Assembly (NCBI RefSeq): GCF_054482525.1
Contig: NZ_CM137006.1
Length of the DNA stretch: 64,000 bases
Direction: 5' to 3' (one strand)
The translations under genes and the position numbers were made by a program. Of the stretch, positions 4,623 through 21,800 are shown in pieces. Each line of letters opens with the position of its first letter. Position 1 is the stretch's first letter. The notes under the pieces are model-generated. The model ran no database searches. It was not told where the DNA came from and saw nothing but the letters and a program-made list of their open reading frames with translations.

Positions 4623-7469
4623 TCAGAAGGTCACATTCAGTGTGGCCTGACCGTTATACCCTTCAGCGCTGCTGCCGCTGACGCTGTGGGCATAACCGGC
4701 CTGAACGCCCAGGGTGATATTTTCCCGGACACGGGCTTCCAGTCCGGCCTGCAGGTCCAGTGACGTGCCATTCCGGGACGGTGAGAACGTCATGTTACTG
4801 CCGGCTGCGGCTGTACCCATGCTCATGTCTCCCCGGGAGCTGAAGGTGCGGATAACAGAAGGCTGTACCCACCAGTTCACAGGCAGTTCACTCACACCGT
4901 GTTTTGTACTGTCGCGCAGGGTGTCACGGGATGAGGTGCCTTCACCAAAGGTCATATCGTTGTGGCTGCCCAGACGGAAACCGGCACGCACATGTTGTGC
5001 ACTGCCATGCCCGAACTTCACATAACCGGCGTTATCCTGGCCGTCATCCAGGGAAAGTCCCTGCCAGGTATAGTGCAGTTGTGGCTCCAGCATCAGGTTG
5101 TCAGTGATACTGAAGGGCAGACCGGTTTCCAGTGAGCCCAGCCAGCCCCAGCCCCGGGCGCGGAAGTCGTTATTGTCCGATGACGCTTTCATGCTGTGGC
5201 GGGTTCCCTGTGCCACAATGTCAGCCCACAGGCCGGAGGACGTGTGTGTCAGATTCAGGTATCCGCCCAGGCTGCCGGCATCATCCCGGACCGTGCCGGC
5301 GCGGGAACCGTCATCATCCTTAACATCAACGGAAGAATGGCCTGCGGCACCATACACCCCTGTCGTCAGAGACATACCGGCAACCTCTGTTCTCAGCAGG
5401 TCACCCTCCAGACGGACGAAGCCATAGCTGCCGCTGCTTTCCGGCGTGGCTCCACGGGCAATACCGCCGTTGTTATCGTGACCGAGATGACCGCCCTGAA
5501 TGCTGAGACGGACGCTGTTATTTTCACCGTTTACACCGGTCTGATGGCTGCGGGAGCCTGCCAGAATCCGATCATGGTCCATTGCCTGTGTCAGCATGGA
5601 TGTATACAGGGGGACTTCAGCACGATAAGCATTTTCACTGCGCAGGTACCAGTCTTCATCGCTGTCACGGTTCAGGGTGTAGTTAAAGGCGCCGGCCTGA
5701 AGCGGGCGACTCAGGGCAAACGCACCTTCTTCTGTGGTGGCGCCATTCTGTGCATCCACAACCCGGATACCCTGTCCGGAGGTTGCCACCCCGAGGTTAC
5801 TGTTTCCGACATTTGTAAACGCAAGCCAGGTTTTGCCGGTTGCCTGACCACCATTAATCACCAGCTGGTCAGAGGTATTGCTGCCATCAAGGCGAACACG
5901 CATATTGATGGTGCCACCCTGACCGGTGAGGTTACTGGTGGTCAGTTTATGGAACGTTACCGGGGAGTCGCCTTTTGCAACAGCACGGCTCAGCGCGGCA
6001 TCCGGTGTCGTCTGATTATCAAAGCGAATCTCCCCTGCGTTAACAATATCGCCGGTACTGACCACATCGCCATTCAGTACCATGCTGGCACCTTTACTGA
6101 GCTGTGTTCTGCCACTCAGACTTCCCCCGGCAGCCAGCGTCAGTGTTCCACGATGTCCGACAGTGGTGTTGCTGGCCAGTCCTCCGGCATTAACCGTAAA
6201 GCTGCCGCCATTTTCCAGCAGCAGTCCGCTGGCCTGACCGGATGTGCCATCAATACTGAACTTACCGCTGGCATTGGTCCCCTCAACAGTGGCACCACTG
6301 TCTGCAATCAGGGCACTACCGGATGTCATGGTGACATCTGTTGCCTTACCACCGGCAGACACTGCCAGGGTTCCGCCGTCATCCACCCGTGTTTTCCAGG
6401 CTGAATGGCCCTCCAGTACATCCAGGCGACCACCGGACTCCAGAACAACACCGTCAGCATTACCGTTTTCCACAGTGAAATTGCCCAGACGGTTGCTGCC
6501 GGTGACGGTTGCCGCCGTACTGGTGACCAGTGCGCCTCCCTGCTTCAGCGTGACATTCGTGGCTGTACCACCGGCGTTCACCTGCAGTTTGCCTTTCTGG
6601 TTAACGGTGGTGAAATCCGCCAGACCACCTTCCTTGACAATCTGCCAGCCGTCACTGTTCACAACAGTGTCAGAGGCTGTACCGCCGTTGTGCACATACT
6701 GGTTACCGCCGTTCAGTGTGGTATCCAGCGCGTAGCCATGTACAGTCTGGTCGCCGCCGGCATAAACCACAGTGGTATTTGCTGTTCCTTCAGCAGCCAC
6801 AATCTGACGACCATTTTCATTGATAGTGGTACGTACGGCATTTCCGCGAACAAACTGCCCGGTATCACCATTTTCTGCATCCGGTCCCCCTTCCGCGCCG
6901 GTATTCACAACCGTGTCGGTTGCCACTGCGCCGGATTTGATGGCCTGCCAGCCCTTCTCATTAATGACGGTACCCGTTGCAATCCCGCCTTCATGTACCC
7001 ACTGCTCACCGCCGTTCAGAGTGGTATTCACTGCCTGCCCCTGAAGGCTCTGTCCGCCTCCGGCACTGATAACCGTGTCTGAAACGCTTCCTCCGGCATT
7101 CACTCTCTGAAGACCACCACCGGTGACAGTAGTGTTGTTGGCGATACCGCCATTTTGTATCCATTGTCCGCCGGTATTGGCCTCGTTATCCGGCCCATAC
7201 TCCAGACCGGTACTGATGGTCATTCCGTTGGCCGTACCGAAGACAATCTGGTTGTCATGATTTGTCAGTGTTCCGCCGCTCACGGTTTCTCCCGCCTGTA
7301 CGACCGTGTCAGCAGCCAGTACCGGGACTGACGTGACAGCAGCAAGAGACAGCGCAACCGCCACACCGGTGCGTTTTCCCCGTGAGCGCGCCAGTTCGGA
7401 AGCCACCACCAGGGTGCCCGTAATGTGATTCCATACCAGCCTGTAGCTGGTGTTCAGATGTCGTTTCAT
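4623..7469 (-). CDS. flu: Antigen 43 self-associating autotransporter adhesin (949 aa from MKRHLNTSYRLVWNH...; ends ...ATLNVTF)
   Basis: Ag43 signal/N-terminus MKRHLNTSYRLVWNHITGTLVVASELARSRGKRTGVAVALSLAAV, repetitive beta-helix passenger (GGxA/TxNTTVxxGG repeats), C-terminal beta-barrel ending in F. The ORF-track start at 7544 is an in-frame extension; the Ag43-like start ATG is at 7469-7467. Confidence 0.9.
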   Translation of the reverse strand: MKRHLNTSYRLVWNHITGTLVVASELARSRGKRTGVAVALSLAAVTSVPVLAADTVVQAGETVSGGTLTNHDNQIVFGTANGMTISTGLEYGPDNEANTGGQWIQNGGIANNTTVTGGGLQRVNAGGSVSDTVISAGGGQSLQGQAVNTTLNGGEQWVHEGGIATGTVINEKGWQAIKSGAVATDTVVNTGAEGGPDAENGDTGQFVRGNAVRTTINENGRQIVAAEGTANTTVVYAGGDQTVHGYALDTTLNGGNQYVHNGGTASDTVVNSDGWQIVKEGGLADFTTVNQKGKLQVNAGGTATNVTLKQGGALVTSTAATVTGSNRLGNFTVENGNADGVVLESGGRLDVLEGHSAWKTRVDDGGTLAVSAGGKATDVTMTSGSALIADSGATVEGTNASGKFSIDGTSGQASGLLLENGGSFTVNAGGLASNTTVGHRGTLTLAAGGSLSGRTQLSKGASMVLNGDVVSTGDIVNAGEIRFDNQTTPDAALSRAVAKGDSPVTFHKLTTSNLTGQGGTINMRVRLDGSNTSDQLVINGGQATGKTWLAFTNVGNSNLGVATSGQGIRVVDAQNGATTEEGAFALSRPLQAGAFNYTLNRDSDEDWYLRSENAYRAEVPLYTSMLTQAMDHDRILAGSRSHQTGVNGENNSVRLSIQGGHLGHDNNGGIARGATPESSGSYGFVRLEGDLLRTEVAGMSLTTGVYGAAGHSSVDVKDDDGSRAGTVRDDAGSLGGYLNLTHTSSGLWADIVAQGTRHSMKASSDNNDFRARGWGWLGSLETGLPFSITDNLMLEPQLHYTWQGLSLDDGQDNAGYVKFGHGSAQHVRAGFRLGSHNDMTFGEGTSSRDTLRDSTKHGVSELPVNWWVQPSVIRTFSSRGDMSMGTAAAGSNMTFSPSRNGTSLDLQAGLEARVRENITLGVQAGYAHSVSGSSAEGYNGQATLNVTF

Positions 7470-7679
7470 CAGCTTTTCCTTACAGAGGGTGAATAAAAAA
7501 GCCGGTACCCACAAATGTGGATACCGGCAGGTACAAAACAGCATGGTCAGATAAAGTGGTTTTTCCCGGACATAAATGCTTCCCCTCTCTCATCCGCCAG
7601 AGAAGTATCAGTCCGTTGTGTGCAATTCCGTTCTGCATGATGAAGAGATTCAGCTGCCTTTTCGCAGACCATTAACCAC

Positions 7680-7730
7680 TATAAACGATCGATAGCAACG
7701 ATCGATACCTGTTTTATCGATCGTTTTATT
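7680..7730. promoter_or_regulatory. agn43 phase-variation switch: three GATC (Dam) sites overlapping the OxyR operator
   Basis: acGATCgatagcaacGATCgatacctgttttatcGATCg, with GATC at 7687-90, 7700-03 and 7719-22, about 220 bp upstream of the flu start. This matches the known agn43 regulatory architecture. Confidence 0.65.
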
Positions 7731-7840
7731 CTATTAACGACAAGGCGGTCACGCAAGAGAAACAGGAGGAGTATGAGGGGTTTGTGTCATGTTTTCAGTT
7801 GGTTAACGTAATGTTATCAGGCATTTCCCTGGCAGACTGT

Positions 7841-8713
7841 TCAGAAGAAAATCCAGTTCCATACAGCGCGGGCAACAGAGACCACCGTGTCACGGACGGC
7901 ACGCAGAACCGTACGGGCAACAGAGGCAACACAGACGCTCTCCGCCGTGTCAAATATCCGGTCCACCGCACCGGTAAACTGTTCACGGGCCTGAGCGCGG
8001 ACAGATTCCGTGCGCAGCTCGTCCTGCAGGCGGGTCATCAGGGGACTGGCGGCATGGTCGGGAAGTGCTGTCATTAGCGCACTGACCAGCGTATCCAGTT
8101 CCCAGCCGGTGCGGGCCGATACGGCAACAACCGGATGTACGGGCCGGAACAGACGGAATACCGCCTCCGTTTTCTCCCGAATGTTCTGTGCCTGTGCGGG
8201 AGAAGGCTGAATGCCGGCCATATCCCATTCATGGCAGGGCTCCGTTTTGTCGGCCTGCGTCACCACAAACAGCACCTGCTGATGTCCCCGGTGCAGGATG
8301 TGTCGCCAGAAATACTCATCCACAGACAGGGCGCGGTCATCGGCTTTAATCAGCCACAGCACCAGGTCCAGTTCGGGCAGAATGTCACGGTACAGGGCTT
8401 CATACTCTGCATCCCTGTCCCGGCTCTCGCCCACCCCGGGCAGGTCAGTGATAACCATGCTGTGACCATGGCCACTCAGACGGAAGCGCCGTACTTCCCG
8501 GGTGCCGGCGTGAACATCACTGACCGGGGTGACCTCCCCCTGAAACAGTGCATTACAGAGTGAGGATTTACCGGCCCCGCTTTTACCCATAATGCCAATC
8601 ACGGGTTCGTGACTGGTGAGTTTGCGCAGATGTTCCAGGATGTGACGGGAAAGCGAGTAAGGCAGGGAGGAGAGCGGTTTTTCAATTGCCTCAATGGCAT
8701 CAGACGGATTCAT
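7841..8713 (-). CDS. YeeP/YfjP/YkfA-family GTPase (50S ribosome-binding GTPase-like) of cryptic prophage
   Basis: MNPSDAIEAIEKPLSSLPYSLSRHILEHLRKLTSHEPVIGIMGKSGAGKSSLCNALF; Walker A GKSGAGKS and D(L)PG motifs. Start chosen at the internal M (8713) by similarity to YfjP; the ORF track extends to 8752. Confidence 0.8.
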   Translation of the reverse strand: MNPSDAIEAIEKPLSSLPYSLSRHILEHLRKLTSHEPVIGIMGKSGAGKSSLCNALFQGEVTPVSDVHAGTREVRRFRLSGHGHSMVITDLPGVGESRDRDAEYEALYRDILPELDLVLWLIKADDRALSVDEYFWRHILHRGHQQVLFVVTQADKTEPCHEWDMAGIQPSPAQAQNIREKTEAVFRLFRPVHPVVAVSARTGWELDTLVSALMTALPDHAASPLMTRLQDELRTESVRAQAREQFTGAVDRIFDTAESVCVASVARTVLRAVRDTVVSVARAVWNWIFF

Positions 8714-8870
8714 ACATGTATTCCCGGTGAAAAAAGACAAAACCCCGCGCACCGGAAAAGTGGCGGGGGACTCACGGAGATAATATCTGCCTAAAATTAT
8801 TTGGAATGCAGGTATATGCAGCTAATTTGTATCGGCTCATTAGTACAGAACTAAACCTCATCTGACAGTC

Positions 8871-8907
8871 CGCTCTGTGCCAGGAGCAGACATTGCCAAC
8901 GTTATGA
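8871..8907. repeat. 37-bp imperfect direct repeat, copy 1 (cgctctgtgccaggagcagacattgccaacgttatga)
   Basis: About 30/37 identical to copy 2 at 10234-10270. Together they bracket a roughly 1.3 kb segment. Confidence 0.6.
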
Positions 8908-9282
8908 CCCTCGATTACATCAAAGAGCCCTATAGCCGAAACCTGCACCATAGCCATCTCTGTAGAATTCGTCCTAGGGGCTTTTAACAGACCTAGTTGT
9001 ATGGAGCGGAAGGAAATATTAAAGCTCAAGGCGTCAGTCCAGTGCTGTCCTGTTTGCTTACCACACGAAAGAGTGCTGCTTGTACCTGCTAACTAATGGT
9101 ATGCGGAGTGAGGGGGGCGGGTAGAACCAAAAGCACTTACTACGTGTGGCGCTCTCCTGGAAGAGGAGACGTCGAAGTGATAACGCTAACAACAGTCTTA
9201 CTGGTGATGCAAATAATGCTAGCTGGTCTGGTTGCCATCAAGCAACTGACTGGACGCCCGTAAGGGATGGAGGAACTTGATT

Positions 9283-9318
9283 AAAGGCAGGGGGGTTACC
9301 TCCCCTGCCTTTTTTCGT
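9283..9318 (+). terminator. Rho-independent terminator (GGCAGGGGGG-TTACC-TCCCCTGCC + T6)
   Basis: Perfect GC-rich hairpin followed by TTTTTT on the + strand, directly after a short hydrophobic ORF that ends with TAA at 9269-9271. Confidence 0.65.
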
Positions 9319-9378
9319 TTCTGCGCAAGTTAGCTCTGTTATTATAATCCTTACTCACACTGTAAGGACATAGTTCAA

Positions 9379-10062
9379 ATGACTGAATGGCTTAATGCAC
9401 ATTTTGGTGCAGACGCAGCTACCTATCTTAGCTTATTAGTCGGCGTACTGGCACTGTTTGGTATTGGGGGCGGTGTTACATATAGAATCAGACAGCAAAA
9501 CAACATAAAACAGAAGGCAAAGAAAACCGAGGGTGATGTGAACCAGGCCGGGCGGGATATTAATCAGACCACCAACGTTTACCACACATCCAATGAATCT
9601 ACTGAGGACCCTGTAAAAAAAAAGCAAGATGAACATGATCTGAAGATAATCGACCAGATCCTTGAATTGCTGCCTTATGAGGATACTACTCAATGGGTTG
9701 AGCAGAGCTACCTGAGCGGTATACGGCAAGATGTTTGCTTAAACATTGAAAAAGCTGAAAAATTTAGCGGTGAAAAGTATCGGTTATTCAATACTGAAGT
9801 GAATGGTGCGAAAGACGCTTTTTTGGACGCTATGACCGCATACGTAGATAGTACGCTACCATTTATGAGTGTTGATTACCCGAACAGAAAGCCAGTGATG
9901 CTAAGCCTTCCCCATGACTGGAAGAGTAAGAGTGTTGAATCGGAGGCAAACTTCCGCTTTCATCAGCAAAATGTGCGTGAAACATCGGGGGGGATGATTG
10001 CGCGCTATGAGGATTTTGTCAGGACATTTAAGGCTCATGGATTCATAAGCGATAAACTGTAA
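9379..10062 (+). CDS. Membrane-anchored hypothetical protein (227 aa; one N-terminal TM helix, cytoplasmic domain unknown)
   Basis: ORF with plausible SD (taaggacatagttcaaATG). TM segment LSLLVGVLALFGIGGGVTY followed by a Lys-rich linker. No recognisable domain. Confidence 0.5.
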   Translation: MTEWLNAHFGADAATYLSLLVGVLALFGIGGGVTYRIRQQNNIKQKAKKTEGDVNQAGRDINQTTNVYHTSNESTEDPVKKKQDEHDLKIIDQILELLPYEDTTQWVEQSYLSGIRQDVCLNIEKAEKFSGEKYRLFNTEVNGAKDAFLDAMTAYVDSTLPFMSVDYPNRKPVMLSLPHDWKSKSVESEANFRFHQQNVRETSGGMIARYEDFVRTFKAHGFISDKL

Positions 10063-10233
10063 AGGCGCAGTGGGTCAGCGAACACCGCAACGACAGAACC
10101 GCGTAAGCGGTAAAATCAGCTTGTTAACTGGCGAGTTTATAGCCGTCCCTCCGGGGCGGCTTTTTTATGACTATAATCGACAGAATCACCTGAACGTCCA
10201 GGTGGGTTTCCCTGACAGGACGTCAAGGAATGT

Positions 10234-10270
10234 TCGCTTTGTGCCAGGAGCGGACGTTGCCAGCATTGAG
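10234..10270. repeat. 37-bp imperfect direct repeat, copy 2 (cgctttgtgccaggagcggacgttgccagcattgagt)
   Basis: Pairs with 8871-8907. Confidence 0.6.
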
Positions 10271-10416
10271 TTTTCAGTTTTCAAAGGTATATCTTTAGAT
10301 TTAGTTCACTTAGAATGAGCGTGTTAAAGTTTTCGGTTATGTGAGTATATTGAACATAACAAATAAACAATAATTTTTGTATTCCATTTAAGATATAAAA
10401 AAGAGGGATTTGAGTT

Positions 10417-11202
10417 ATGTACGATTATAGTTTTTTACTTACTCCATCTACAGGATTTGTTAAAGGATTATGTGGAGTTTGGTCGAATGATTTCTCTATA
10501 AATGATGATTCTGACTCTGATTTAGGGCAAACAGATATTCATTTACTTTCATCTCCTCATTTGAATATCATATCCGACCCAAATGAATTGGCTTCCAAGT
10601 TAAAAGGTTTGTTGATGCTCATGAACGGCGCACTTAGCGTTCTTTATGGTTTTGAAAGATATCAATCTTTTGGTCCTCTTTCTATTTCTGGAAGTGAAGG
10701 CATTAATTACTCGGAAATATGCGGCTTTAAATCAATGGATGTAACTCAGGTAAATCCCTTTAATTTCCATGACATACAGCAACCACACCCTCGCGCTGAT
10801 AATTTTTCACGATTAATTAATTTATCATCTAAACATGAATCCTTACGTGTTGTTTTAGGTATGTGTGCCTTAGGTTATGATTGGGTTAATCTTTATCGTT
10901 TGTGGGAAACAATTAGAGAATATGTATATGATAAATATGTGAAAGGTATACTAAATTTTCCCGACGCTTATAAAGGCAAGAAATATCAGAGAGATAAAGT
11001 AATTAGCATGGCTTTTAATATTGATGAAAAGGAAATCAGCAGATTCACGGGCACTGCTAATAGCTTTGAACTGTTAGGGTATCTTGCGAGACATGGAAAG
11101 GGAAGTTCCGGAGGGATATTAAAAAATCCGATGTCAAGAGTTGACGCAAGCAATTTCGTACACAAAGCAACTTACAAATATTGTAAGTTATTTTTGATGT
11201 AA
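10417..11202 (+). CDS. Hypothetical protein (261 aa) in a sharply AT-rich segment; orphan accessory gene
   Basis: Long ORF in a low-GC block (10.3-11.3 kb) with RBS-like aaaaagagggatttgagttATG. No recognisable motifs. Confidence 0.45.
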   Translation: MYDYSFLLTPSTGFVKGLCGVWSNDFSINDDSDSDLGQTDIHLLSSPHLNIISDPNELASKLKGLLMLMNGALSVLYGFERYQSFGPLSISGSEGINYSEICGFKSMDVTQVNPFNFHDIQQPHPRADNFSRLINLSSKHESLRVVLGMCALGYDWVNLYRLWETIREYVYDKYVKGILNFPDAYKGKKYQRDKVISMAFNIDEKEISRFTGTANSFELLGYLARHGKGSSGGILKNPMSRVDASNFVHKATYKYCKLFLM

Positions 11203-11363
11203 GTAAAAAGTTGAAGCTATAATACTCAAAGTATCGAAAACTACGTTCGTCGTGCACTCGAAAACAATATGCTTATTGTGTCTGCACTAATTACTCAAGG
11301 TCCGAGAAAAATGGCGAAGCTCATCTTTTTCAGGCTTCGCCAACTTGAGTTATTGGTTAAAAT

Positions 11364-12116
11364 TCATTTAGGAATAATAGAATGCAATTCGTGACTCACC
11401 TGGATTTCATAGTGTTTCAATAGTTCTCCGATGTTAATTCCTACTACCTTACGAACTGCGCCGAGGGAGAAGTTAAGCTCCTCAATGCCCGGCCGATCTG
11501 GCGTTGAATTCATATAGTGTCGGCACGCACGGACAATTGACTCGACGATCAACGATAGCGGAGACTCAGGTGCAATCTCGGAGCGAATCGCCGTAAGAGA
11601 GAGTCGGAGCTCCTTCAAAGAATCCGAGACTCGTGCTGGATCCTCTTGAGCATATGGCAGATAAAGAGAACTCTTGTCTTCCAATAAATGGATCACCCGC
11701 AGAGCAATTTTCTCGTCTGGGCGATGCGATAGAAATTGAAACATTAGCCTCTTTCCTCCCTCCAAGCACTCCTTCATTAGTGATTCGTGGTCACGTTTCC
11801 ATTTTCGCAAATACTCGGCGGGGTAGCCCATACCGCCATTCTTATCAACTAAATCAGCACAAGCTCCGCACAACCATATAGCATTTTTTATGCTCTTCCG
11901 CTCTGTTTCTGACTGAGACATGTCATAGCGCGGTCCGCCAGGGCTCGCCGCGCAGATATGCGCCGCCTCACCCGTCTTGATAGAAAGATTTTCCGCCAAT
12001 TGATCCGGGCCGATTGTTACCCTATGACAAGAGGGATTGCTACAAATATATGTAGCGCGCTCTGCTACCTTACCTACAACGCTTGGAGGAAAGTTGTGCC
12101 TATTTGTCTTGGTCAT
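11364..12116 (-). CDS. HNH-endonuclease-domain protein (250 aa) with uncharacterised C-terminal domain
   Basis: N-terminal CSNPSCHR ... AAHICAASPGGPRYD ... NAIWLCGACADLVD resembles an HNH/zinc-finger nuclease core (CxxC..H..N..CxxC). Confidence 0.5.
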   Translation of the reverse strand: MTKTNRHNFPPSVVGKVAERATYICSNPSCHRVTIGPDQLAENLSIKTGEAAHICAASPGGPRYDMSQSETERKSIKNAIWLCGACADLVDKNGGMGYPAEYLRKWKRDHESLMKECLEGGKRLMFQFLSHRPDEKIALRVIHLLEDKSSLYLPYAQEDPARVSDSLKELRLSLTAIRSEIAPESPLSLIVESIVRACRHYMNSTPDRPGIEELNFSLGAVRKVVGINIGELLKHYEIQVSHELHSIIPK

Positions 12117-12559
12117 AAAAGTTATGCTTCTTTGTTTTTTTCATCTATGTGGGGAGAATAAAATCATACTTTTTATATCTGATCCTAGGTCTGACCAGCA
12201 ACCTATTGATCAAAAAACCAAGATATTAGCTAAAAAAAATCAGCATACTTGAGACCAAGCTCAATGTCCGCTCCTCGCTCAAAGCAGACCATTCGCTCAG
12301 TTAACGCATCAGTGTCGTGCTAAAAGTAGACGTGGTTAACAACAATGTGAGTTAATCAACGGAGAGCAGGTCAACTCTAACCTGTATCAAAAAAACAAAT
12401 GTGTCACAAAGATGCCGCATGCCTTAATTTGAGTATAATTGAGACGGAAGTAGACGGTTTATGGCTAAATATTGTTGATATATAGCTATTTGAAGAGTTG
12501 TAGCGCAAGTGTATAGCCCAAACTAATAACGCTACGCCCCTTACCTTTGACGCCTCTTA

Positions 12560-12868
12560 TCAAAGAGCGGCGATGATGCACAGCCCGCACGAGGCAATAT
12601 TCGCACAAGAATCAGGTTCAGAAATAACCTGATCTGGCATGGTGGGGAGAGTATCACTGAGCAGGCTTTCGGTAAAATGCGGCGGGATGAGGTCGGCGTG
12701 GGTTGCAGCAGTACAATGTCGCCCGCAGAGGGTAAGCCACAGCGCGGGATCCTCGGTTTCTATCAGGGATTCGACGAAGTGGGCGCAGTTGTCGACCAAG
12801 GCGGTGAAATCCATAGTGACATTATAAGGAAACGAACAATAGATCGAGTAAATCGCAGTCAGGGACAA
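12560..12868 (-). CDS. Hypothetical small protein divergent from the hsd operon
   Basis: 102-aa ORF with normal GC. No recognisable family; start uncertain (an internal M gives 84 aa). Confidence 0.25.
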   Translation of the reverse strand: MSLTAIYSIYCSFPYNVTMDFTALVDNCAHFVESLIETEDPALWLTLCGRHCTAATHADLIPPHFTESLLSDTLPTMPDQVISEPDSCANIASCGLCIIAAL

Positions 12869-13089
12869 GGATTGTAGTCATAGAGAAGTCTCCTGTAACG
12901 GTTTTCAGGAAGCTAATCCCGACGCCTGATTTTGCAGGCGCGGAAGGAGAAGATACTGCGGCCATTAATCCGCCACAAGGCATTTACGTGCATAAATCGC
13001 GCAGTCAAATCCGACTCCCACTGTAGTTCTTGAACCTGATACCACATTTAGCTAATTTAGCTAACTTATCTATTATACCAGTGGTTGCC

Positions 13090-13335
13090 ATGAATATGAA
13101 TGAAGACGAGATTTATCGCCATATCCGGCAGGCACTTTCCAGTGCGCCTCGTAACCAGTACACCGTCGAGCTGCACCTGCAAATGATTAAATATGCCGAC
13201 AAACTGGAACACATTACGGCAAAAGCCTTTTGCGAAGGCACTGGTCTGAACCAGAGCCTCGGTACCGAATTCAGCAAAATGCGTAACTTAACCCATCGGT
13301 TAAAGGCCGCCGGTCTGAATACCGATCTGCTGTAA
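13090..13335 (+). CDS. Small hypothetical protein (about 81 aa) immediately upstream of hsdM
   Basis: MNMNEDEIYRHIRQALSSAPRNQYTVELHLQMIKYADKLEHITAKAFCEGTGLNQSLGTEFSKMRNLTHRLKAAGLNTDLL. Co-oriented with hsdM and 40 bp upstream of it. The ORF track extends to 13030. Confidence 0.4.
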   Translation: MNMNEDEIYRHIRQALSSAPRNQYTVELHLQMIKYADKLEHITAKAFCEGTGLNQSLGTEFSKMRNLTHRLKAAGLNTDLL

Positions 13336-13374
13336 CCGACTTACGGCACATTATCGCGCAAAACGAGATATTTA

Positions 13375-15813
13375 ATGGCTATCAAAAAAACCGAACTCTA
13401 TTCTTCCCTGTGGGCAAGCTGCGACGAACTGCGTGGCGGGATGGACGCCAGCCAGTACAAAGACTATGTACTGACCCTGCTGTTTATGAAGTACGTTTCC
13501 GATAAGTATAAAGGCGATCCTTACGGGATGATCGTGATACCCAAAGGAGCCAGCTTTGACGATATGGTTGCGCTGAAAAATGACAAAGAGATCGGCGACA
13601 AAATCAACAAAATCATCCACAAGCTGGCGGAAGAGAACGGCCTGAAGGGCGTCATCGACGAAGCCGACTTTAACGACGAAGATAAGCTCGGCAAAGGCAA
13701 GGAAATGATTGACCGCCTGAGCAAGCTTGTCGGTATCTTTGAAGGGTTAAATCTCTCCAGCAACCGGGCCGAAGGCGACGATCTGCTGGGCGATGCCTAT
13801 GAATATCTGATGCGTCACTTCGCAACCGAATCCGGTAAGAGTAAAGGGCAGTTTTACACTCCAGCGGAGGTGTCACGTATTCTGGCGAAGGTGATTGGTA
13901 TTACTCCCGATACTCCGCAAGATGCAACGGTTTATGACCCAACCTGTGGCTCTGGTTCGCTGCTGTTGAAAGTGAATGATGAAGCCCGGCGCGGACTGTC
14001 GATTTTCGGCCAGGAGATGGATAACGCTACCAGTGCGCTGGCGCGGATGAACATGATTCTGCATAACAATGCCACCGCGAAAATCTGGCAGGGCAATACG
14101 CTGAGCGATCCGCAGTGGAAAGAGGCGAACGGCAAACTGAAAGCCTTCGATTTTGCCGTGGCGAACCCGCCTTTTTCCAATAAAAACTGGACCAACGGGC
14201 TGACGCCGAAAAAAGATCCGTTTGAACGCTTCGGCTGGGGTATTCCGCCGGAAAAAAACGGCGATTATGCTTTTTTGTTGCATATCATTAAAAGCCTGAA
14301 AAGTACCGGCAAAGGCGCGGTGATCCTGCCCCACGGCGTACTGTTTCGCGGTAACGCCGAAGCGAATATCCGTGAAAATCTAATCAAGCAGGGCTATATC
14401 AAAGGCGTTATTGGTTTGCCAGCCAACCTGTTTTACGGCACCGGCATCCCGGCGTGCATCATTGTGATTGATAAAGAGCACGCCCACAGCCGCAAAGGCA
14501 TTTTTATGATCGACGCCAGCCGGGGCTTTATCAAAGATGGCAACAAGAACCGCCTGCGTAGCCGAGATATTCACCGCATTGTGGACGTGTTCAACCATCA
14601 GCGAACGGTACCTGGCTACAGCCGGATGGTGCCCTCCAGCGAGATCGCCGGAAATGATTACAACCTGAATATTCCTCGCTATATCGAGAGCGGCGAGCCG
14701 GAAGATTTACACGATCTGACCGCGCACTTACAGGGCGGTATTCCGGCACGCGATGTGGATGCTTTGCAAGATTACTGGCGGGTATTCCCTGCCCTGCGCA
14801 ACGTGCTGTTTGCTGACGACCGTCCCGGTTACTGTCGGGCGCAGGTGAACGCGCAACAGGTGAAACCGACCATTCTGGCGCATCAGGAGTTTAAGGATTT
14901 TGCCACCCGCAGCCTGCTACCGTTTAAAGCGTGGGTGAAAGAGGCAAGTCTGGAAGAGATTCGCAAAGGTGATAAACCCAAAGCGCTAATCCACGATATC
15001 AGCGAAATGCTATTGGCGCAGTACGCCAACAGTGAGTTGCTGAACAAATACAGCGTGTACCAGATCCTGATGGATTACTGGACTGATGTCATGCAAGACG
15101 ATGTGTATGCGATTATGCAGGATGGCTGGCAAGCCGCCGCGCAAATCCGCGAGCTTCAGCCGGTGAAAGGCAAAGATGGCAAAAACATCTGGAAAGAAAC
15201 GCACGATTTCGAGTTTACCAAACGGCGCTACAAGGCCGATGTGCTGCCCCGTTCGCTGGTGGAAATTCGCTGTTTCCCGGAACTGCTGGATGCGCTGAAC
15301 CGCGCGCAGGAGCGCAGTGAAGAAGCCAGTCGTCAGCTAGTGGAATTCATCGAGGAGCAGGCAGGTGAAGAGGATCTGCTGGCCGAGGCGAAGAACGATA
15401 AAGATAAGGTGACGCAAAAGCTGGTGAATGCCCGTCTAGCACAGTTAAAGAAAACCACTGCCGGCCCAGATGAGCTGGCAGTGCTGAACCGCTGCCTGGC
15501 GCTAATTAAGGCCGAAGCCAGTGCGAAAAAAGCGCTGAAAGCCGCACAAGAAGCGCTGGATCGGGCGGTGTTTAAACATTATCCCACGCTGGATGAAGCA
15601 GCGATTAAAACGCTGGTAGTGCAGGATAAGTGGCTGGCAACGTTGCAGGCAGGGATCAAGGCGGAGATTGAGCGTATTACCCAGCAACTGGCGTCGCGCG
15701 TAAAGGAGCTGGAAGAGCGTTATGCTGAACCGTTGCTAGCGCTTGAAGCCTCCGTTGAGGCGTTGAGCGAGAAAGTGGCCGAGCATTTGCGGGCGATGGG
15801 GCTGGAGTGGTGA
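13375..15813 (+). CDS. hsdM: Type I restriction-modification system methyltransferase subunit M (812 aa, with long C-terminal coiled-coil extension)
   Basis: HsdM N-terminal domain (YKDYVLTLLFMKYVSD), SAM motif DPTCGSGSLL, catalytic NPPF (FAVANPPFS). About 300 extra C-terminal residues rich in A/E/K/L. Confidence 0.9.
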   Translation: MAIKKTELYSSLWASCDELRGGMDASQYKDYVLTLLFMKYVSDKYKGDPYGMIVIPKGASFDDMVALKNDKEIGDKINKIIHKLAEENGLKGVIDEADFNDEDKLGKGKEMIDRLSKLVGIFEGLNLSSNRAEGDDLLGDAYEYLMRHFATESGKSKGQFYTPAEVSRILAKVIGITPDTPQDATVYDPTCGSGSLLLKVNDEARRGLSIFGQEMDNATSALARMNMILHNNATAKIWQGNTLSDPQWKEANGKLKAFDFAVANPPFSNKNWTNGLTPKKDPFERFGWGIPPEKNGDYAFLLHIIKSLKSTGKGAVILPHGVLFRGNAEANIRENLIKQGYIKGVIGLPANLFYGTGIPACIIVIDKEHAHSRKGIFMIDASRGFIKDGNKNRLRSRDIHRIVDVFNHQRTVPGYSRMVPSSEIAGNDYNLNIPRYIESGEPEDLHDLTAHLQGGIPARDVDALQDYWRVFPALRNVLFADDRPGYCRAQVNAQQVKPTILAHQEFKDFATRSLLPFKAWVKEASLEEIRKGDKPKALIHDISEMLLAQYANSELLNKYSVYQILMDYWTDVMQDDVYAIMQDGWQAAAQIRELQPVKGKDGKNIWKETHDFEFTKRRYKADVLPRSLVEIRCFPELLDALNRAQERSEEASRQLVEFIEEQAGEEDLLAEAKNDKDKVTQKLVNARLAQLKKTTAGPDELAVLNRCLALIKAEASAKKALKAAQEALDRAVFKHYPTLDEAAIKTLVVQDKWLATLQAGIKAEIERITQQLASRVKELEERYAEPLLALEASVEALSEKVAEHLRAMGLEW

Positions 15814-17147
15814 TGGTGGATTTAATGGTGAATGAGCAACGGTCGAGTACGGCGGGGAAAGATGTGCCTGCGGGGTATAAACTGACTGAGGTGGGCGTGA
15901 TTCCTGAGGATTGGGATTGCGTACCATTTGGTAATCTGTTTAAAACAAACACAAAGAAAAAAAAAGTCAGCGATTATGAGCTAGTTTCATTTATTGGGAT
16001 GCAAGATGTTAGTGAAGATGCACAATTAAAAAATAATACTCAACTTCCTTTTAAAGAAGTTAAAAGTGGTTTTACTTACTTTGAAAAAGGGGATGTTTTA
16101 TTAGCTAAAATAACCCCTTGTTTTGAAAATGGAAAAGGATGTCATACCGCTGATTTACCTACTAATGTAGGTTTTGGGAGTACGGAATTTCATGTATTAA
16201 GGGAAAATGAAGACTCCGATTCTCGCTTCATCTATTTTTGGACAACTGATAAAAAATTCAGAGCATCACTGGAATCTGAAATGGTGGGAAGTGCGGGACA
16301 CCGTCGTGTGCCGCTAGTTGCTATAGAAAAATATTTGATTCCATGTCCCCCAAATTTGCAAGAGCAAAGTGCTATTGCTGATTCATTATCTGATATTAAT
16401 AATTTTATTCTAGCTCTAGAAAAGCTTATCGTTAAAAAACAAGCCATTAAAACCGCTACTATGCAGCGACTACTGACTGGTAAAACCCGTTTGCCACAGT
16501 TTGCGTTGCGCAAAGATGGCTCTGCTAAGGGATATAAAAAGAGCGAGTTGGGGGAGATTCCTGAAGATTGGAATTGTATTAATCTTGGTGAGCTAGGTAA
16601 TTGCATTATTGGGTTAACTTACAAACCTGAAGATACATCTGATTATGGTACATTGGTATTACGCTCATCCAACATTCAAAATAATCACTTAGCTTATGAT
16701 GATAACGTCTTCGTCAGCATAGAACCACCTGAGCGCACAATTGTGAAAGAAGGTGATATCTTGGTATGTGTAAGAAATGGCAGTCGCCAACTTATTGGCA
16801 AATGCGCATTAATTGACAAAAATGCGCAGGGCTCAGCATTCGGTGCATTTATGTCAGTATTCCGAACTGATATATATGGATTTACATTTCACCAATTCCA
16901 GTCTGATATTATTCAAAAGCAAATCGCTGAAGTTATGGGTGCCACTATCAATCAGATAACTAACAAAGATATGTTGGGCTTTAAAATCCCATTACCTGAA
17001 AATACAGAAGAACAAGCCGCCATCGCCGCCATCCTCTCCGATATGGACAAGGAAATCCAGATCCTGCAACAGCGTCTGGACAAAACCCGCCAGCTTAAGC
17101 AAGGGATGATGCAGGAACTGTTAACCGGGAAAATCCGCTTAATATAG
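15807..17147 (+). CDS. hsdS: Type I R-M specificity subunit S (two target-recognition domains)
   Basis: Conserved central and C-terminal repeats ...ATMQRLLTGKTRLPQF... and ...MMQELLTGKIRLI typical of HsdS. Start overlaps the hsdM stop. Confidence 0.85.
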   Translation: MVMVDLMVNEQRSSTAGKDVPAGYKLTEVGVIPEDWDCVPFGNLFKTNTKKKKVSDYELVSFIGMQDVSEDAQLKNNTQLPFKEVKSGFTYFEKGDVLLAKITPCFENGKGCHTADLPTNVGFGSTEFHVLRENEDSDSRFIYFWTTDKKFRASLESEMVGSAGHRRVPLVAIEKYLIPCPPNLQEQSAIADSLSDINNFILALEKLIVKKQAIKTATMQRLLTGKTRLPQFALRKDGSAKGYKKSELGEIPEDWNCINLGELGNCIIGLTYKPEDTSDYGTLVLRSSNIQNNHLAYDDNVFVSIEPPERTIVKEGDILVCVRNGSRQLIGKCALIDKNAQGSAFGAFMSVFRTDIYGFTFHQFQSDIIQKQIAEVMGATINQITNKDMLGFKIPLPENTEEQAAIAAILSDMDKEIQILQQRLDKTRQLKQGMMQELLTGKIRLI

Positions 17148-17159
17148 AAGGGAAAGCAC

Positions 17160-17816
17160 ATGGCTTATGATTACAGCGCCAGCCTCAACCCGCAAAAAGC
17201 TCTGATCTGGCGTATCGTCCATCGGGACAATATCCCGTGGATTCTGGATAACGGGCTGCACTGCGGCAACAGTCTGGTGCAGGCGGAAAACTGGATCAAT
17301 ATCGGCAACCCGGAGCTGATCGGCAAGCGTGCCGGGCATCCGGTACCTGTCGGAACGGGCGGGACACTGCATGACTATGTGCCGTTTTATTTTACCCCCT
17401 TCTCGCCAATGCTGATGAACATCCACAGCGGGCGCGGCGGCATTAAGCAACGCCCCAATGAGGAGATCGTTATTCTGGTCAGCAACTTGCGAAACGTGGC
17501 AGCACACGACGTACCCTTCGTGTTTACCGACAGCCATGCTTACTATAACTGGACCAACTACTACACCAGTCTGGATAGTCTGGACCAGATCGACTGGCCC
17601 ATTTTGCAGGCACGGGACTTTCGCCGCGATCCAGACGATCCGGCTAAATTTGAACGCTATCAGGCAGAGGCGCTAATCTGGCAACACTGCCCGATCTCTC
17701 TGCTGGATGGGATAATTTGTTACAGCGAAGAGGTCAGGTTACAATTAGAACAATGGCTGTTTCAGCGTAATCTAACAATGTCCGTTCACACACGGGCTGG
17801 ATGGTACTTCTCATGA
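17160..17816 (+). CDS. darT: DarT DNA ADP-ribosyltransferase toxin (DUF4433)
   Basis: 218 aa, [38 protein letters not shown].... Matches the DUF4433/DarT family as found in EPEC E. coli (from memory). Followed with an ATGA overlap by a macrodomain gene. Confidence 0.75.
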
Positions 17817-18880
17817 TCACATATACACAAGGCAATTTACTGGACGCACCGGTGGAAGCTCTGGTGAATACGGTTAATACCGTCGGTGTCATGGGGAAAG
17901 GCATCGCGTTGATGTTTAAAGAGCGCTTCCCCGAAAATATGAAAGTCTATGCCCTCGCCTGCAAACAAAAGCAGGTGATCACCGGCAAAATGTTCATTAC
18001 CGAAACCGGGGAACTGATGGGACCGCGCTGGATTGTTAATTTTCCGACCAAACAGCACTGGCGCGCTGATTCCCGCATGGAGTGGATTGAAGATGGCTTG
18101 CAGGACTTACGCCGCTTTTTGATTGAAGAGAACGTGCAGTCCATCGCCATTCCACCACTGGGCGCAGGCAACGGTGGTTTGAACTGGCCGGACGTTCGGG
18201 CGCAGATTGAATCTGCCCTTGGCGACCTTCAGGACGTTGATATCCTGATTTACCAACCGACTGAAAAATACCAGAACGTTGCCAAAAGCACTGGCGTAAA
18301 AAAGCTCACTCCCGCCAGAGCCGCCATCGCTGAACTGGTGCGTCGCTACTGGGTATTGGGGATGGAGTGCAGCCTACTGGAAATCCAGAAACTGGCCTGG
18401 CTGTTACAACGCGCCATTGAGCAGCATCAACAGGACGATATCCTCAAACTGCGGTTTGAAGCTCACTATTATGGCCCCTATGCGCCCAATCTGAACCATC
18501 TGCTTAATGCGCTGGACGGCACCTATCTTAAAGCCGAGAAACGCATCCCGGACAGCCAACCGCTGGATGTGATCTGGTTTAACGATCAGAAAAAAGAACA
18601 CGTTAATGCGTATCTGAACAACGAAGCCAGAGAGTGGCTACCTGCGCTGGAGCAGGTCAGCCAGTTAATTGACGGCTTTGAATCGCCGTTTGGTCTGGAG
18701 TTGCTGGCAACCGTAGACTGGTTGCTGAGCCGTGGCGAATGTCAACCAACGCTGGATTCCGTTAAGGAAGGGCTGCACCAGTGGCCTGCGGGCGAACGCT
18801 GGGCCAGCCGTAAGTTGAGGCTGTTTGATAATAATAATCTGCAATTTGCCATTAACCGCGTAATGGAGTTCCATTGCTGA
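17813..18880 (+). CDS. darG: DarG antitoxin (N-terminal macrodomain ADP-ribosylglycohydrolase + C-terminal DarT-binding domain)
   Basis: [40 protein letters not shown]... is a classic macrodomain N-terminus. The ATG at 17813 overlaps the darT TGA at 17814-17816. The ORF track starts at 17801. Confidence 0.75.
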
Positions 18881-18898
18881 GGGTTTAAGGAGCGCCTT

Positions 18899-21800
18899 TT
18901 GAGTACCGTGGGCCAGCGCGAACGCGCCACACAGCAGCGTCTGATTCAGTTTTTTGTTGAAGATTTAGGTTACCGCCATCTGAGTCACCGCACCGGGTAC
19001 ACCGGGAACAGCAACATCGACACTAATATACTGAGCGCGTGGCTAAAACGGCGCGGCGTTAATGATACGTTGATCACCCGGGCGTTGCGGCAACTGGATT
19101 CCGCCGCCGCTCTGGGCGAAGGCAAAAAACTCTATTACGCCAATAAAGAGGTCTATCGCCTGCTGCGTTACGGCGTGAAAGACAAAGAAGGCGCAGGCGA
19201 GCAGAACCAAACCGTGTGGCTGATTGACTGGGCCAACCCACAAGCCAATGATTTCGCCATCGCCGATGAGGTGACGGTCAAAGGCGAGTACTGCAAGCGC
19301 CCGGATCTGGTGCTGTACGTTAACGGCATTGCGCTGGGCGTGATTGAACTTAAGCGTTCGTCAGTGCACGTCAGCGAAGGCATCCGGCAGAATCTCGATA
19401 ATCAAAAGAAAACCTTTATCCGCGATTTCTTCACCACTATGCAGTTAGTGATGGCGGGCAACGATACGCAGGGCCTGCGCTACGGCACCATCGAAACCCC
19501 GGAAAAATACTATCTGGAGTGGAAAGAAGATAATCCAGGCGACTATACACATAAACTCGACTTTCATTTAAGTCGTCTGTGTAGCAAATCCAGGCTGTTG
19601 GATATCGTCCATAATTACATTGCCTTTGATGTCGGGGTGAAAAAACTCTGCCGCCATAATCAGTTCTTCGGCGTCGAGGCGGCTAAACAACATATTGCCC
19701 GTCGTGAAGGCGGTATTATCTGGCACACACAGGGATCGGGTAAAAGCCTGACGATGGTCTGGCTGGCGAAGTGGATCCGTGAAAATGTGCCAAACTCCCG
19801 CGTGTTGATTGTGACTGACCGCACCGAACTGGATGAACAGATCGAAAGCGTGTTTATGGGCGTGAATGAAGATATTTATCGCACCTCCAGCGGCAACGAT
19901 CTTATCGCAACGCTCAATCATCCTAACCCGTGGCTCATTTGCTCGCTGGTGCATAAATTTGGTCGTCGCAGCGAAGCTGAAGACAATGCGGCTACCGACG
20001 CCTTTATCACCGAATTACAGCAGTCCCTGACGAAAACATTCCGCGCCAAAGGCGATCTGTTTGTTTTTGTGGACGAGTGCCACCGCACACAATCCGGCAA
20101 GCTGCATAACGCCATGACTGCCATTCTGCCGGACGCCCTGTTTATCGGTTTTACCGGCACACCGCTGATGAAGAAAGATAAGAAGAAGTCGGTTGAGGTG
20201 TTCGGCCCTTATATCCATACCTATAAATTTGATGAAGCGGTGGCCGACGGTGTGGTGCTGGATCTGCGCTACGAGGCACGCGATATTGACCAGTATCTGA
20301 CATCAGAGAAAAAGGTCGATGACTGGTTTGAAGCCAAGACTCGCGGTTTGTCGAATTTAGCCAGGACCCAGCTTAAGCAAAAGTGGGGATCAATGCAGAA
20401 GCTGCTCTCCAGCAAGTCGCGGCTGGAGCAGATCGTTAACGACATTTTGCTGGATATGGATACCCGTCCACGCCTGATGGACGGGCGCGGCAACGCCATG
20501 CTGGTATGCAGCAGTATCTATCAAGCCTGCAAGGTTTACGAGATGTTCAGCCAGACCGAGCTGGCAGGAAAAGTAGCGATTGTGACCAGCTATCGCCCCG
20601 ATGCCGCCAGCATCAAAGGCGAAGAAACGGGCGAAGGGTTAACGGAGAAACTCTCTAAACACGCCACCTATCGTAAAATGTTGGCTGACTATTTTGAACA
20701 AAGTGAAGAGAAGGCCGCCGCACGCATTACCGAGTTCGAGCGGGAAATGAAACAGCGTTTTATTGAAGAGCCGGGGCAAATGCGCCTGCTTATCGTGGTG
20801 GATAAGCTGCTGACTGGCTTTGACGCGCCGTCCGCCACCTATCTCTACATTGATAAAACCATGACCGACCATACGCTGTTTCAGGCGATTTGTCGGGTGA
20901 ACCGGCTGGACGGTGAGGATAAAGAGTATGGCTATATTATCGATTATAAAGATCTGTTCCGTTCGCTGGATAAAGCGATTACCGATTACACCACGGGCGC
21001 GTTTGATGATTACGATCGGGACGATGTGGCCGGGTTGCTGAAAGACAGGCTGGAGCAGGCGCAACTGGATCTCGACAGCGCGCTGGAGATGGTTCGCAGC
21101 TTATGTGAACCCGTCAAAACCCCGCGCAGCCTGCTGGACTATCAGCACTATTTTTGCGGTGAATCAGGAGAGAATCAGACTTCGTTAAACGAAAAAGAGG
21201 CGCTGCGCCTGACATTTTACCAGTGCGTCGCCCGTCTGCTACGCGCTTATGCCAGCATCGCCAATGAAATGCCGGAAGCAGGCTACACTGCCGAAGAGGT
21301 AGAGAGCATTCGCGCCGAAGTCGCTGAATTCGAAAAACTGCGCTATGAGATTAAGCTGACCAGCGGCGATCTTCTGGATATGAAGCGCTTTGAACCCGCT
21401 ATGCGTCATTTACTGGATATGTATGTTCGCGCCGATGGTAGCGAAGTGCTGATGGATTTTGAAGAGTTAAGTCTGATTGAACTGATTGTCGAGAAAGGCT
21501 TGGCGGCGACCGTCGCCCTGCCGGATGATATCCGTAATAATCAGGATGCGATGGCGGAAACCATCGAAAACAACGTGCGCAAAACCATCGTGGATGAAAA
21601 CCCGGTTAACCCAAAATACTATGGACGCATGTCGCAGCTGCTGGATGAACTGATTACCCTTCGCCGACAAAATGCGCTCAATTATCAGCAGTATCTGGAA
21701 CGTATCCGCGATTTGTGTAAACAGGTCATCCGCCCGGAGCAAACCGCCGGAGCGTGCTACCCTGCCACCATGGATACACAAGCAAAGCGCGCCTTCTATG

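Follow-up and report, generated by a model that had tools for sequence, protein, structure and literature searches.

The 64,000-nt stretch of DNA analysed here (the window; contig NZ_CM137006.1 of NCBI RefSeq assembly GCF_054482525.1) matches Escherichia coli strain AH65 at 100% identity and covers a CP4-like island. This island carries the Ag43 adhesin gene (4623-7544, - strand) and a YeeP/YfjP-family GTPase gene (7841-8752, - strand), and the variable cargo to the right of the GTPase gene consists of three hypothetical genes followed by a type I restriction-modification operon. Within this cargo, the original prediction, made from the letters alone, had placed a block of about 1.3 kb between two imperfect direct repeats of 37 nt. 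It is likely that these repeats are copies of a short palindromic recombination site, that the block is a 1.36-kb cassette inserted at such a site and that cargo is exchanged there by recombination. Comparison with other genomes demonstrated three things. Measured against an empty site that has one palindrome, the block (cassette A) is a precise insertion of 1363 bp; the presence, absence or replacement of its neighbour (cassette B) and of alternative cassettes is delimited exactly by the sites; and near-identical copies of cassettes A and B occur in mobile elements that are unrelated.

A palindromic site with three copies beside the GTPase gene

The two direct repeats are present at 8871-8907 and 10234-10270, and their identity, previously given as about 80 percent, amounts to 29 of 37 positions (78%); the best ungapped repeat pairs 8868-8903 with 10232-10267 (36 nt, 83% identity). 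A degenerate 22-mer of the shared core matches only twice in the window and not once in 100 dinucleotide-preserving shuffles. Every copy is centred on a 24-bp palindrome with 8-bp arms and an asymmetric 8-bp spacer, GTCCGCTC-TGTGCCAG-GAGCGGAC. Scanned with the 24-nt consensus at no more than 4 mismatches, the window yields four matches at three positions, compared with 0.03 in the shuffles, and no further copy above background. At the third position, the copy is inverted and has the spacer TGAGCGAG instead of TGTGCCAG. Sites with the spacer TGTGCCAG are hereafter called C-type and those with TGAGCGAG G-type; the two spacers differ by two bases. In addition, the motif CTGACAG stands upstream of both direct copies, offset by a 14-nt insertion or deletion.

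The palindrome, the inverted third copy and the displaced CTGACAG had no place in the original prediction, and neither did the second cassette: the block is one cassette of two (Table 1). The pair occupies the variable cargo region beside the GTPase gene, the predicted block falling within its first 1.5 kb, and not, as had been supposed, the terminus of the island. The conserved flank on its left is homologous to the DNA just 3' of the tail-fibre-assembly gene G in P2-like phages. On its right, the possible decayed partner of copy 3 hints weakly that the two might form a back-to-back doublet like the 42-nt-spaced doublets found elsewhere.

Table 1 Features of the cassette region, in coordinates of the window
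Feature	Position	Strand	Remarks
Conserved flank 5' of the YeeP-family GTPase gene	8825..8867	+	Terminates in ATCTGACA
Site copy 1, C-type, GTCCGCTC-TGTGCCAG-GAGCAGAC	8868..8891	+	Left junction of cassette A; repeat reaches ~8907
Cassette A	8892..10231	+	Leader with small open reading frame, terminator, 227-aa gene, terminator
Site copy 2, C-type, GTTCGCTT-TGTGCCAG-GAGCGGAC	10232..10255	+	Right junction of A = left junction of B
Cassette B	10256..12265		261-aa gene (+) and 250-aa HNH-like DUF6650 gene (-)
Site copy 3, G-type, GTCTGCTT-TGAGCGAG-GAGCGGAC read on the - strand	12266..12289	-	Right end of cassette B
18-nt linker (CGTTAACTGAGCGAATG-like), then possible decayed C-type partner	12290..12331	-	13 of 24 positions match

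Cassette A opens with a 490-nt leader that includes a small hydrophobic open reading frame (ORF; 9178-9263, start codon GTG). Terminator-like hairpins lie at 9283-9312, a strong one that caps the small ORF, and at 10141-10161, and the 227-aa ORF between them (9379-10062, + strand) has an N-terminal hydrophobic segment, in agreement with the terminator-capped small ORF region and membrane protein that had been read there before. No match to the 227-aa protein was found in Pfam, PHROG, NCBIfam or PADLOC. The GTG of the small ORF at 9178 has GGAGA just before it and its product is MITLTTVLLVMQIMLAGLVAIKQLTGRP, a possible toxin-like peptide of type I or small protein of the membrane; the surrounding region (9096-9312) has no Rfam match.

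At site copy 2, the boundary between the cassettes, the GC content falls from 0.48 to 0.30. The 261-aa protein of cassette B (10417-11202, + strand) has no Pfam, NCBIfam or PHROG annotation, and the 250-aa protein (11364-12116, - strand) matches PADLOC PDC-M68A (6.6e-24), HNH effector models and DUF6650. Cassette B is a likely defence candidate. At its inner end (12207-12232), TTGATCAAAAAACCAAG resembles half of a hix/gix-type DNA-invertase crossover site, and cassette B elsewhere adjoins tail-fibre genes; the half site may be a relic or a product of chance.

Empty and occupied alleles, and hybrid junctions

Homology between the window and other genomes breaks at the sites. The segment upstream of the GTPase gene is common to ~4200 of 5426 complete E. 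coli genomes, and its homology stops at 8882-8899, inside copy 1. Strain 144 and ~16 others match 8700-10255 and diverge directly after the copy 2 palindrome (GAGCGGAC), and the right-hand backbone, which occurs in ~250 other E. coli genomes, begins to match at 12263-12267, the edge of copy 3. In strain N1131, an alternative 1.15-kb cassette lies between copy 1 and copy 3 (C-type, inverted G-type), on a backbone with 97.7% identity to the window on one side and 99.97% on the other.

The empty site was found with a chimeric query composed of the GTPase-upstream segment, one palindrome and the DNA that follows copy 2 in strain 144. With at least 80% of this query covered, it is present in 205 complete genomes of E. 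coli, among them that of Nissle 1917, and the GTPase-side backbone is joined there via one palindrome to the downstream DNA; the listed matches are single pieces with 98-99.5% identity. The empty allele reads ..aatctgaca GTCCGCTC TGTGCCAG GAGCGGAC tgtccaaccc.., and the occupied allele reads ..aatctgaca GTCCGCTC TGTGCCAG GAGCAGAC attgccaacg.. at its left junction and ..caaggaat GTTCGCTC TGTGCCAG GAGCGGAC tgtccaaccc.. at its right. Cassette A is present or absent as one unit relative to the empty site, and the occupied allele exceeds the empty one by exactly 1363 bp, that is, by cassette A and one palindrome copy. The junctions are reciprocal: the left one reads GTC..AGAC and the right one GTT..GGAC, where the empty site has GTC..GGAC; the C/T difference at position 3 and the G/A difference at position 21 are distributed in opposite ways between them. 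Copy 1 is itself a hybrid, as its left arm is that of the empty site and its right arm (A at position 21) stays with cassette A in every context. Each junction combines one part of the empty site with one part of a donor site, GTTCGCTC-TGTGCCAG-GAGCAGAC, and the two are reciprocal, a pattern that we read as the signature of conservative reciprocal recombination across the palindrome. The single-palindrome empty site and the hybrid junctions support the earlier idea of a site-specific insertion, or cassette, with att-like repeats.

The allele of CP042901 holds A, then B, then the same downstream cassette, and is 2076 bp longer than the A-only allele. This gain consists of the B cargo, an inverted G-type site, an 18-nt linker and a C-type site, and it lies at a C-type site. 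One backbone yields a series of empty site, one cassette and two cassettes. On the window's own right-hand backbone, no empty site was found among the 5426 E. coli genomes; it was found on the sister backbone. Cassette B was not found without cassette A, and all 14 genomes with B also have A.

The same cassettes occur in other mobile elements. The segment from ~8845 to 12289 is present at 99.4% identity in a P2-like prophage, exactly between gene G (tail-fibre assembly) and gene FI (tail sheath) (loci L003 and L258), and again at 99.4% identity at the end of a lambdoid prophage beside icd' or ymgL (loci L004 and L259). An F-like plasmid has the tail of cassette A and copy 2, followed by a GNAT acetyltransferase gene between C-type and G-type sites. 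In all of these contexts, the outer arms of the terminal palindromes are those of the recipient, whereas the inner arms stay with the cargo; for example, GACTGCTT forms the outer arm in the lambdoid prophage and GTCCGCTC does so in P2 and the island.

Insertion sequences were also seen at the sites. In E. coli Z1323PEC0014 (L004, ~6510-8000), an IS110-family element with a 412-aa transposase lies inside a C-type palindrome, between ..TGTGCCAGG and AGCAGAC.., and on plasmid pSCU-111-1 (L253, 8218-9239) a second IS110-family pseudogene adjoins decayed palindromes. The IS110 family may target these sites, as related elements target repetitive extragenic palindromic (REP) sequences or transposon ends.

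Several other identities of the repeats were rejected. The original prediction had considered decayed target duplications, but target-site duplication does not hold because the empty site already has the palindrome, which is found in donors and at unrelated loci as well; the repeats are copies of a conserved site and not decayed ones. A remnant of coding sequence was suggested by conservative-looking substitutions in two frames, yet it was discarded because the motif spans more than 240 unrelated contexts with non-conserved flanks. An intrinsic terminator was set aside, as the copies have no T-run and fold weakly, and a LexA box, a sigma-54 promoter and a P2 Ogr site (TGT-N12-ACA) did not fit in spacing or key bases on inspection. 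No known RNA coincides with the repeats (no Rfam match there at E<=1 when 7400-13500 was scanned).

Layout of the site family and a candidate recombinase

An exact scan with a degenerate 24-mer returned at least 120 stretches in species-representative genomes and at least 120 in viral contigs. The listed genome matches are mostly in Enterobacterales (Pantoea, Erwinia, Enterobacter, Kluyvera, Ewingella, Yersinia, Pectobacterium, Proteus and Serratia), with Idiomarina also matched, and Alphaproteobacteria have related forms with other spacers. Among the viral matches listed, 69 of 120 are P2-like loci. The flanks of the listed copies are not conserved, and the copies often lie directly after stop codons and also at operon ends. 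Matches are present in 2761 plasmid records, mainly from Klebsiella, and Pantoea megaplasmids have up to 14 BLAST-detectable places. In E. coli, the median is 1 and the maximum 6 places per genome, and the site is confined there to mobile elements. The suspicion that the repeat might be a common dispersed element unrelated to the block is thus half right: the family is dispersed in Enterobacterales chromosomes, plasmids and P2-like phages, but it is rare in E. coli and tied to the block boundaries.

Two minor observations concern the margins of this distribution. In Alphaproteobacteria (L025, L027, L057 and L131), palindromes with the spacers TGGGTCAG, TGGGCCAG and TGCGCCAG form direct tandem copies 45-46 nt apart, unlike the inverted doublets of Enterobacterales. 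In E. coli K-12, a weak palindrome match (87% over 31 nt; for example, NZ_CP009685.1 2049273-2049303) lies inside or beside ydfV of the Qin prophage, a gene that we take to be near the relBE and hokD modules in the K-12 gene order.

The arrangement of multiple copies was examined at no more than 4 mismatches in 132 loci, comprising the 120 listed species-representative loci and 12 further ones; 82 of these have at least two site copies. After deduplication, the consecutive far-apart pairs in the listed species-representative loci include 43 convergent C/G pairs, one G/G pair and no C/C pair. Direct C/C pairs, the arrangement of window copies 1 and 2, number 18 among the same loci. Close pairs are divergent C/G doublets (21 among the listed loci), in most of which the two starts lie 42 nt apart. 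Such pair counts are not those expected of repeats in random orientation; the units are two-ended. Normally, a cargo unit is laid out as a C-type site, cargo and an inverted G-type site, and between adjacent units stands a back-to-back G/C doublet, the linker of which is fixed at 18 nt. The C/G units of the listed loci contain 219 ORFs in 145 families. The cargo includes LysR, MFS, TetR, GNAT, ASCH, alpha/beta-hydrolase and ArsB proteins and, in phage contexts, Gabija, ThsB, PD-T7-1/5, LmuB, AbiL and TIR proteins.

In sister islands, the last cassette is followed by the gene of a 200-aa tyrosine recombinase (WP_001305361.1), here named int200, which forms a unit of ~705 bp (8356-9063 of E. coli locus L257; also in Nissle 1917, L267). 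Strain 144 (NZ_CP023364) has both cassette A and int200, in cis. As read from the sequence, int200 keeps the Arg, His-x-x-Arg, His and Tyr catalytic motifs. It has the size of FimB/FimE, its scores fall far short of the cut-offs set for the Xer, integron-integrase and invertase models (58 bits compared with 220 for Xer/integron-integrase), and no relative by sequence was found in the PDB at E<=0.001. We consider int200 a candidate Fim/Xer-like tyrosine recombinase that may act at the sites. The unit is present in 908 of the 5426 complete E. coli genomes and in 42 plasmid places. Its family is large, with at least 7998 clusters, and conserved to an unusual degree, and the best 120 matches, with 76-96% identity, span Enterobacterales, Proteus/Providencia, Idiomarina, Pseudoalteromonas and Cycloclasticus. 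Homologues of int200 occur in 12 of 240 motif-seeded listed loci, where ~0.1 would be expected by chance, an estimate that rests on the frequency in E. coli (976 places in 5426 genomes).

The int200 gene is itself bracketed by related sequences. About 20 nt past its stop codon stands ..GGGCTG-N5-CAGCCC-TGTGCCAR-RAGCGGAC in E. coli, Proteus, Idiomarina and marine gammaproteobacteria, the proteins of which are 81-100% identical. In E. coli and Proteus, GTCYGCTC-CTCGCTC.. stands before the start and is followed by a hairpin containing the ribosome-binding site (in E. coli, ACTCAAATCTCC..GGAGATTTGAGT, immediately before the ATG). Each of the two bracketing sites (C-like and G-like) is canonical only in its spacer and in the arm that points away from the gene. 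The homology of the ~705-bp unit breaks exactly at both sites in hundreds of E. coli genomes, with different cargo beyond, and in Proteus the C-like site of int200 is directly followed by a DUF4160 cassette, which has a perfect G-type site at its end. Such positions suggest a possible link between the recombinase and the sites.

Explanations of the exchange and comparison with known systems

We propose that the exchange would be a conservative, reciprocal site-specific recombination within or beside the spacer of a lox-like site. A circular cassette would integrate or excise by recombination between two C-type sites. The difference between C and G spacers would block inversion or deletion between a cargo's own ends, and exchange with another replicon would still be possible. 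The recombinase would be supplied in trans, with int200 as the candidate. A wider proposal, to which we give less credence and which we put forward only tentatively, is that of an uncharacterised integron-like cassette system in which int200 captures, excises and exchanges cassettes of a single gene or a few genes, thereby stocking the defence hotspots of P2-like phages, lambdoid prophages, CP4-like islands and plasmids, with chromosomal arrays in many Gammaproteobacteria.

Several observations weigh against these proposals. Catalysis by an enzyme is something that we infer, and the window does not encode int200; therefore, any action of int200 on the window sites would be in trans. The G-like half-site before the start of int200 is less clear or absent in marine and Idiomarina loci, which have few or no other canonical sites nearby, and a Parvibaculum homologue (61% identity) has no adjacent site. 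The predicted circular or tandem junction of cassette A (..CAAGGAAT-GTTCGCTY-TGTGCCAG-GAGCAGAC-ATTGCCAACG..) gave 0 matches in metagenome and viral contigs. Polymorphisms bracket the crossover between positions 4 and 20 for the insertion of A, 9 and 20 in the lambdoid context, and 4 and 8 at the B junction, and the three are compatible with a single exchange region only if the overlap includes position 8. The empty site has arms that are perfect over 12 bp (GACAGTCCGCTC-TGTGCCAG-GAGCGGACTGTC) and, as a DNA hairpin, a folding energy of -14.4 kcal/mol (z = -5.3), but the three window copies are weak hairpins (-3.7 to -5.8 kcal/mol); therefore, cruciform-dependent mechanisms are not favoured here. 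Finally, homologous recombination across the 17-24 bp of shared sequence would give the same reciprocal hybrids.

In that last explanation, the palindromes would be conserved micro-homology anchors, and cargo would be exchanged by RecA, Red or RecET without a dedicated recombinase. The junctions fit a crossover anywhere in the 17-24 bp of identity; homology sometimes exceeds the palindrome, as in the ~45 nt that the left flanks of P2 and CP4-like islands have in common; and lambdoid prophages carry recombinases of their own, with no enzyme encoded in the window. However, a length of 24 bp is no more than the minimum at which RecA-dependent recombination is efficient. Furthermore, homologous recombination leaves unexplained the rule for C and G ends (43:1:0 in the listed loci), the fixed 42-nt doublets, the 12-8-12 palindrome kept across orders and the recombinase gene between half-sites of both kinds. 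We consider it unlikely, albeit the most serious of the competing explanations. A still less probable one is that the repeat resembles REP sequences and bacterial interspersed mosaic elements (BIMEs), having been spread as 66-bp doublets by a transposase, so that the "cassettes" would be ordinary genes between intergenic repeats. Like REP/BIME sequences and the systems of REP doublets forming hairpins and REP-associated tyrosine transposases (REPIN-RAYT), the sites are short, dispersed, extragenic palindromes of two subtypes that form inverted doublets with a fixed linker; their dispersal in many Enterobacterales, the related forms in Alphaproteobacteria, the non-conserved flanks, the frequent position directly after stop codons, the Pantoea megaplasmids with up to 14 detectable copies and the IS110-family element inside one copy, as known for REP targets, all suit this model. 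In contrast, REP sequences number hundreds per genome, and the site is low-copy in E. coli and present only in its mobile elements. Random doublets predict many convergent C/C and G/G pairs, which are essentially absent, whereas the polarity of the two ends round cargo is strict, and precise presence and absence alleles with hybrid junctions exist. The sites lack the 5' GTAG-type tetranucleotide, and the gene associated with them encodes a tyrosine recombinase and not a Y1/HUH transposase; near the sites, a tblastn search with IS200 TnpA, which has low sensitivity for distant RAYT proteins, found IS200 itself only.

The palindromes might also be hairpins selected at cargo edges as terminators, insulators or RNA-stability elements, with their position at the junctions being incidental. 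This agrees with the palindromic form, with the placement beside stop codons and operon ends and with the P2 copy, which follows the last gene of the V operon. Nevertheless, it is highly improbable: the copies have no T-run, those of the window fold weakly and match nothing in Rfam, and P2 has a separate annotated terminator ~300 nt further. The counts of the variable stem pair in the listed loci (C-G 228, T-G 91, C-A 41 and T-A 19) equal the expectation under independence, and in view of this lack of covariation it is the sequence and not the fold that is conserved. Neither the hybrid junctions nor the transfer of cassettes between replicons would be explained. Site-specific recombination at the palindrome accordingly remains the explanation that we prefer.

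Nilsson, Karlsson and Haggard-Ljungquist (2004, Mol Biol Evol 21:1), as summarised in PMC8987985, proposed site-specific exchange between phage and bacterium for the inverted repeats flanking P2 fun(Z). In the P2 genome, a C-type site at 15335 (+) and an inverted G-type site at 17432 (-) enclose fun(Z). P2-like phages have one C-type copy after gene G, and L-413C and other Peduovirus genomes diverge directly after GAGCGGACATT. The fun(Z) repeats have the sequence family and layout seen in the window, and cassettes A and B were found in exactly that G-FI locus. Judged by this position and by the one-sentence summary in PMC8987985, the window repeat is probably the fun(Z) repeat of 2004, and, as far as that summary goes, both the sequence family and the idea of site-specific exchange have been known since then (PMC8987985). 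Therefore, the phenomenon is known in outline, and the window is a new, unusually informative instance of it. It differs from the fun(Z) locus in its setting in a CP4-like island beside a YeeP-family GTPase gene, in its two cassettes with an internal direct C-type site, and in its documented hybrid junctions and empty-site allele. The series of alleles, the layout of C and G sites and the association with a recombinase go beyond the descriptions found in the literature, a search of which returned no match to the exact site sequence and no described recombinase or cassette system of relevance.

The sites also resemble integrons in several respects. Compact and diverse cargo lies in arrays, insertion at a single site leaves one site copy per unit, and defence genes are frequent cargo; a tyrosine recombinase gene stands beside a half-canonical primary site, recalling attI next to intI, and the composite junction between cassettes measures ~66 bp. 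However, the site, GTCCGCTC-N8-GAGCGGAC, has no RYYYAAC/GTTRRRY cores of attC, and this part of the window has no IntI-type integrase (~320 aa, with an extra domain), the candidate being of 200 aa. The cassettes described here also lie in either orientation with terminators of their own, two site types exist, a site is present on each side of the candidate gene, and the arrays lie inside phages, islands and plasmids.

Other recombination systems resemble the sites in part. The pdif (XerC/XerD) modules of Acinetobacter plasmids are likewise bounded by inversely oriented short sites, occur in different replicons and use a recombinase in trans. The dif site is a 28-bp 11-6-11 sequence with the consensus arms GGTGCGCATAA/TTATGTTAAAT. 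The arms described here are unrelated to these and are identical to each other, where those of dif are distinct halves for XerC and XerD, the spacer measures 8 bp instead of 6, and nothing points to Xer. The 12-8-12 empty site, a perfect palindrome with an asymmetric 8-bp spacer, recalls loxP/FRT (13-8-13) in architecture only. As in cassette exchange between heterospecific sites, two spacer variants at the cargo ends would block recombination within a unit and permit exchange. In T4-type phages, promoter-early stem-loop cassettes consist of short repeats on either side of novel ORFs in hyperplastic regions, and insertions, deletions and replacements have their ends at these repeats (PMC2839356). 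In contrast to the sites described here, which occur in unrelated replicons with an associated recombinase, those cassettes contain promoters, are thought to act by homologous recombination and belong to one phage group.

Anti-phage systems have a major reservoir in the hotspots of P2-like phages and of the satellites of these phages, and a catalogue of the P2/P4 defence hotspots stated that the mechanism behind their very high rate of gene exchange is unknown (PMC9122126). The allele series, together with the same cassettes in three other kinds of mobile element, provides a clean natural experiment that narrows the exchange to the 24-bp palindrome. In addition, a conserved recombinase gene between the same sites makes the mechanism directly testable with defined substrates. 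If the link to the recombinase is true, the order of C-type site, cargo and inverted G-type site would be a rule for mining defence and accessory genes.

Three features elsewhere in the island deserve mention. An Rfam match to the IS102 (IsrC-like) small RNA, at 73 bits and above the gathering score, lies between the Ag43 and GTPase genes (7488-7724, - strand). Just right of the cassettes (12880-12954, - strand), isrK and the c4 antisense-RNA target (a1/b1) are matched, both below the gathering score. Further along, in the restriction-modification region (13375-21994), the DarT and DarG toxin-antitoxin genes sit between hsdS and hsdR, and an M48 peptidase gene follows the operon.

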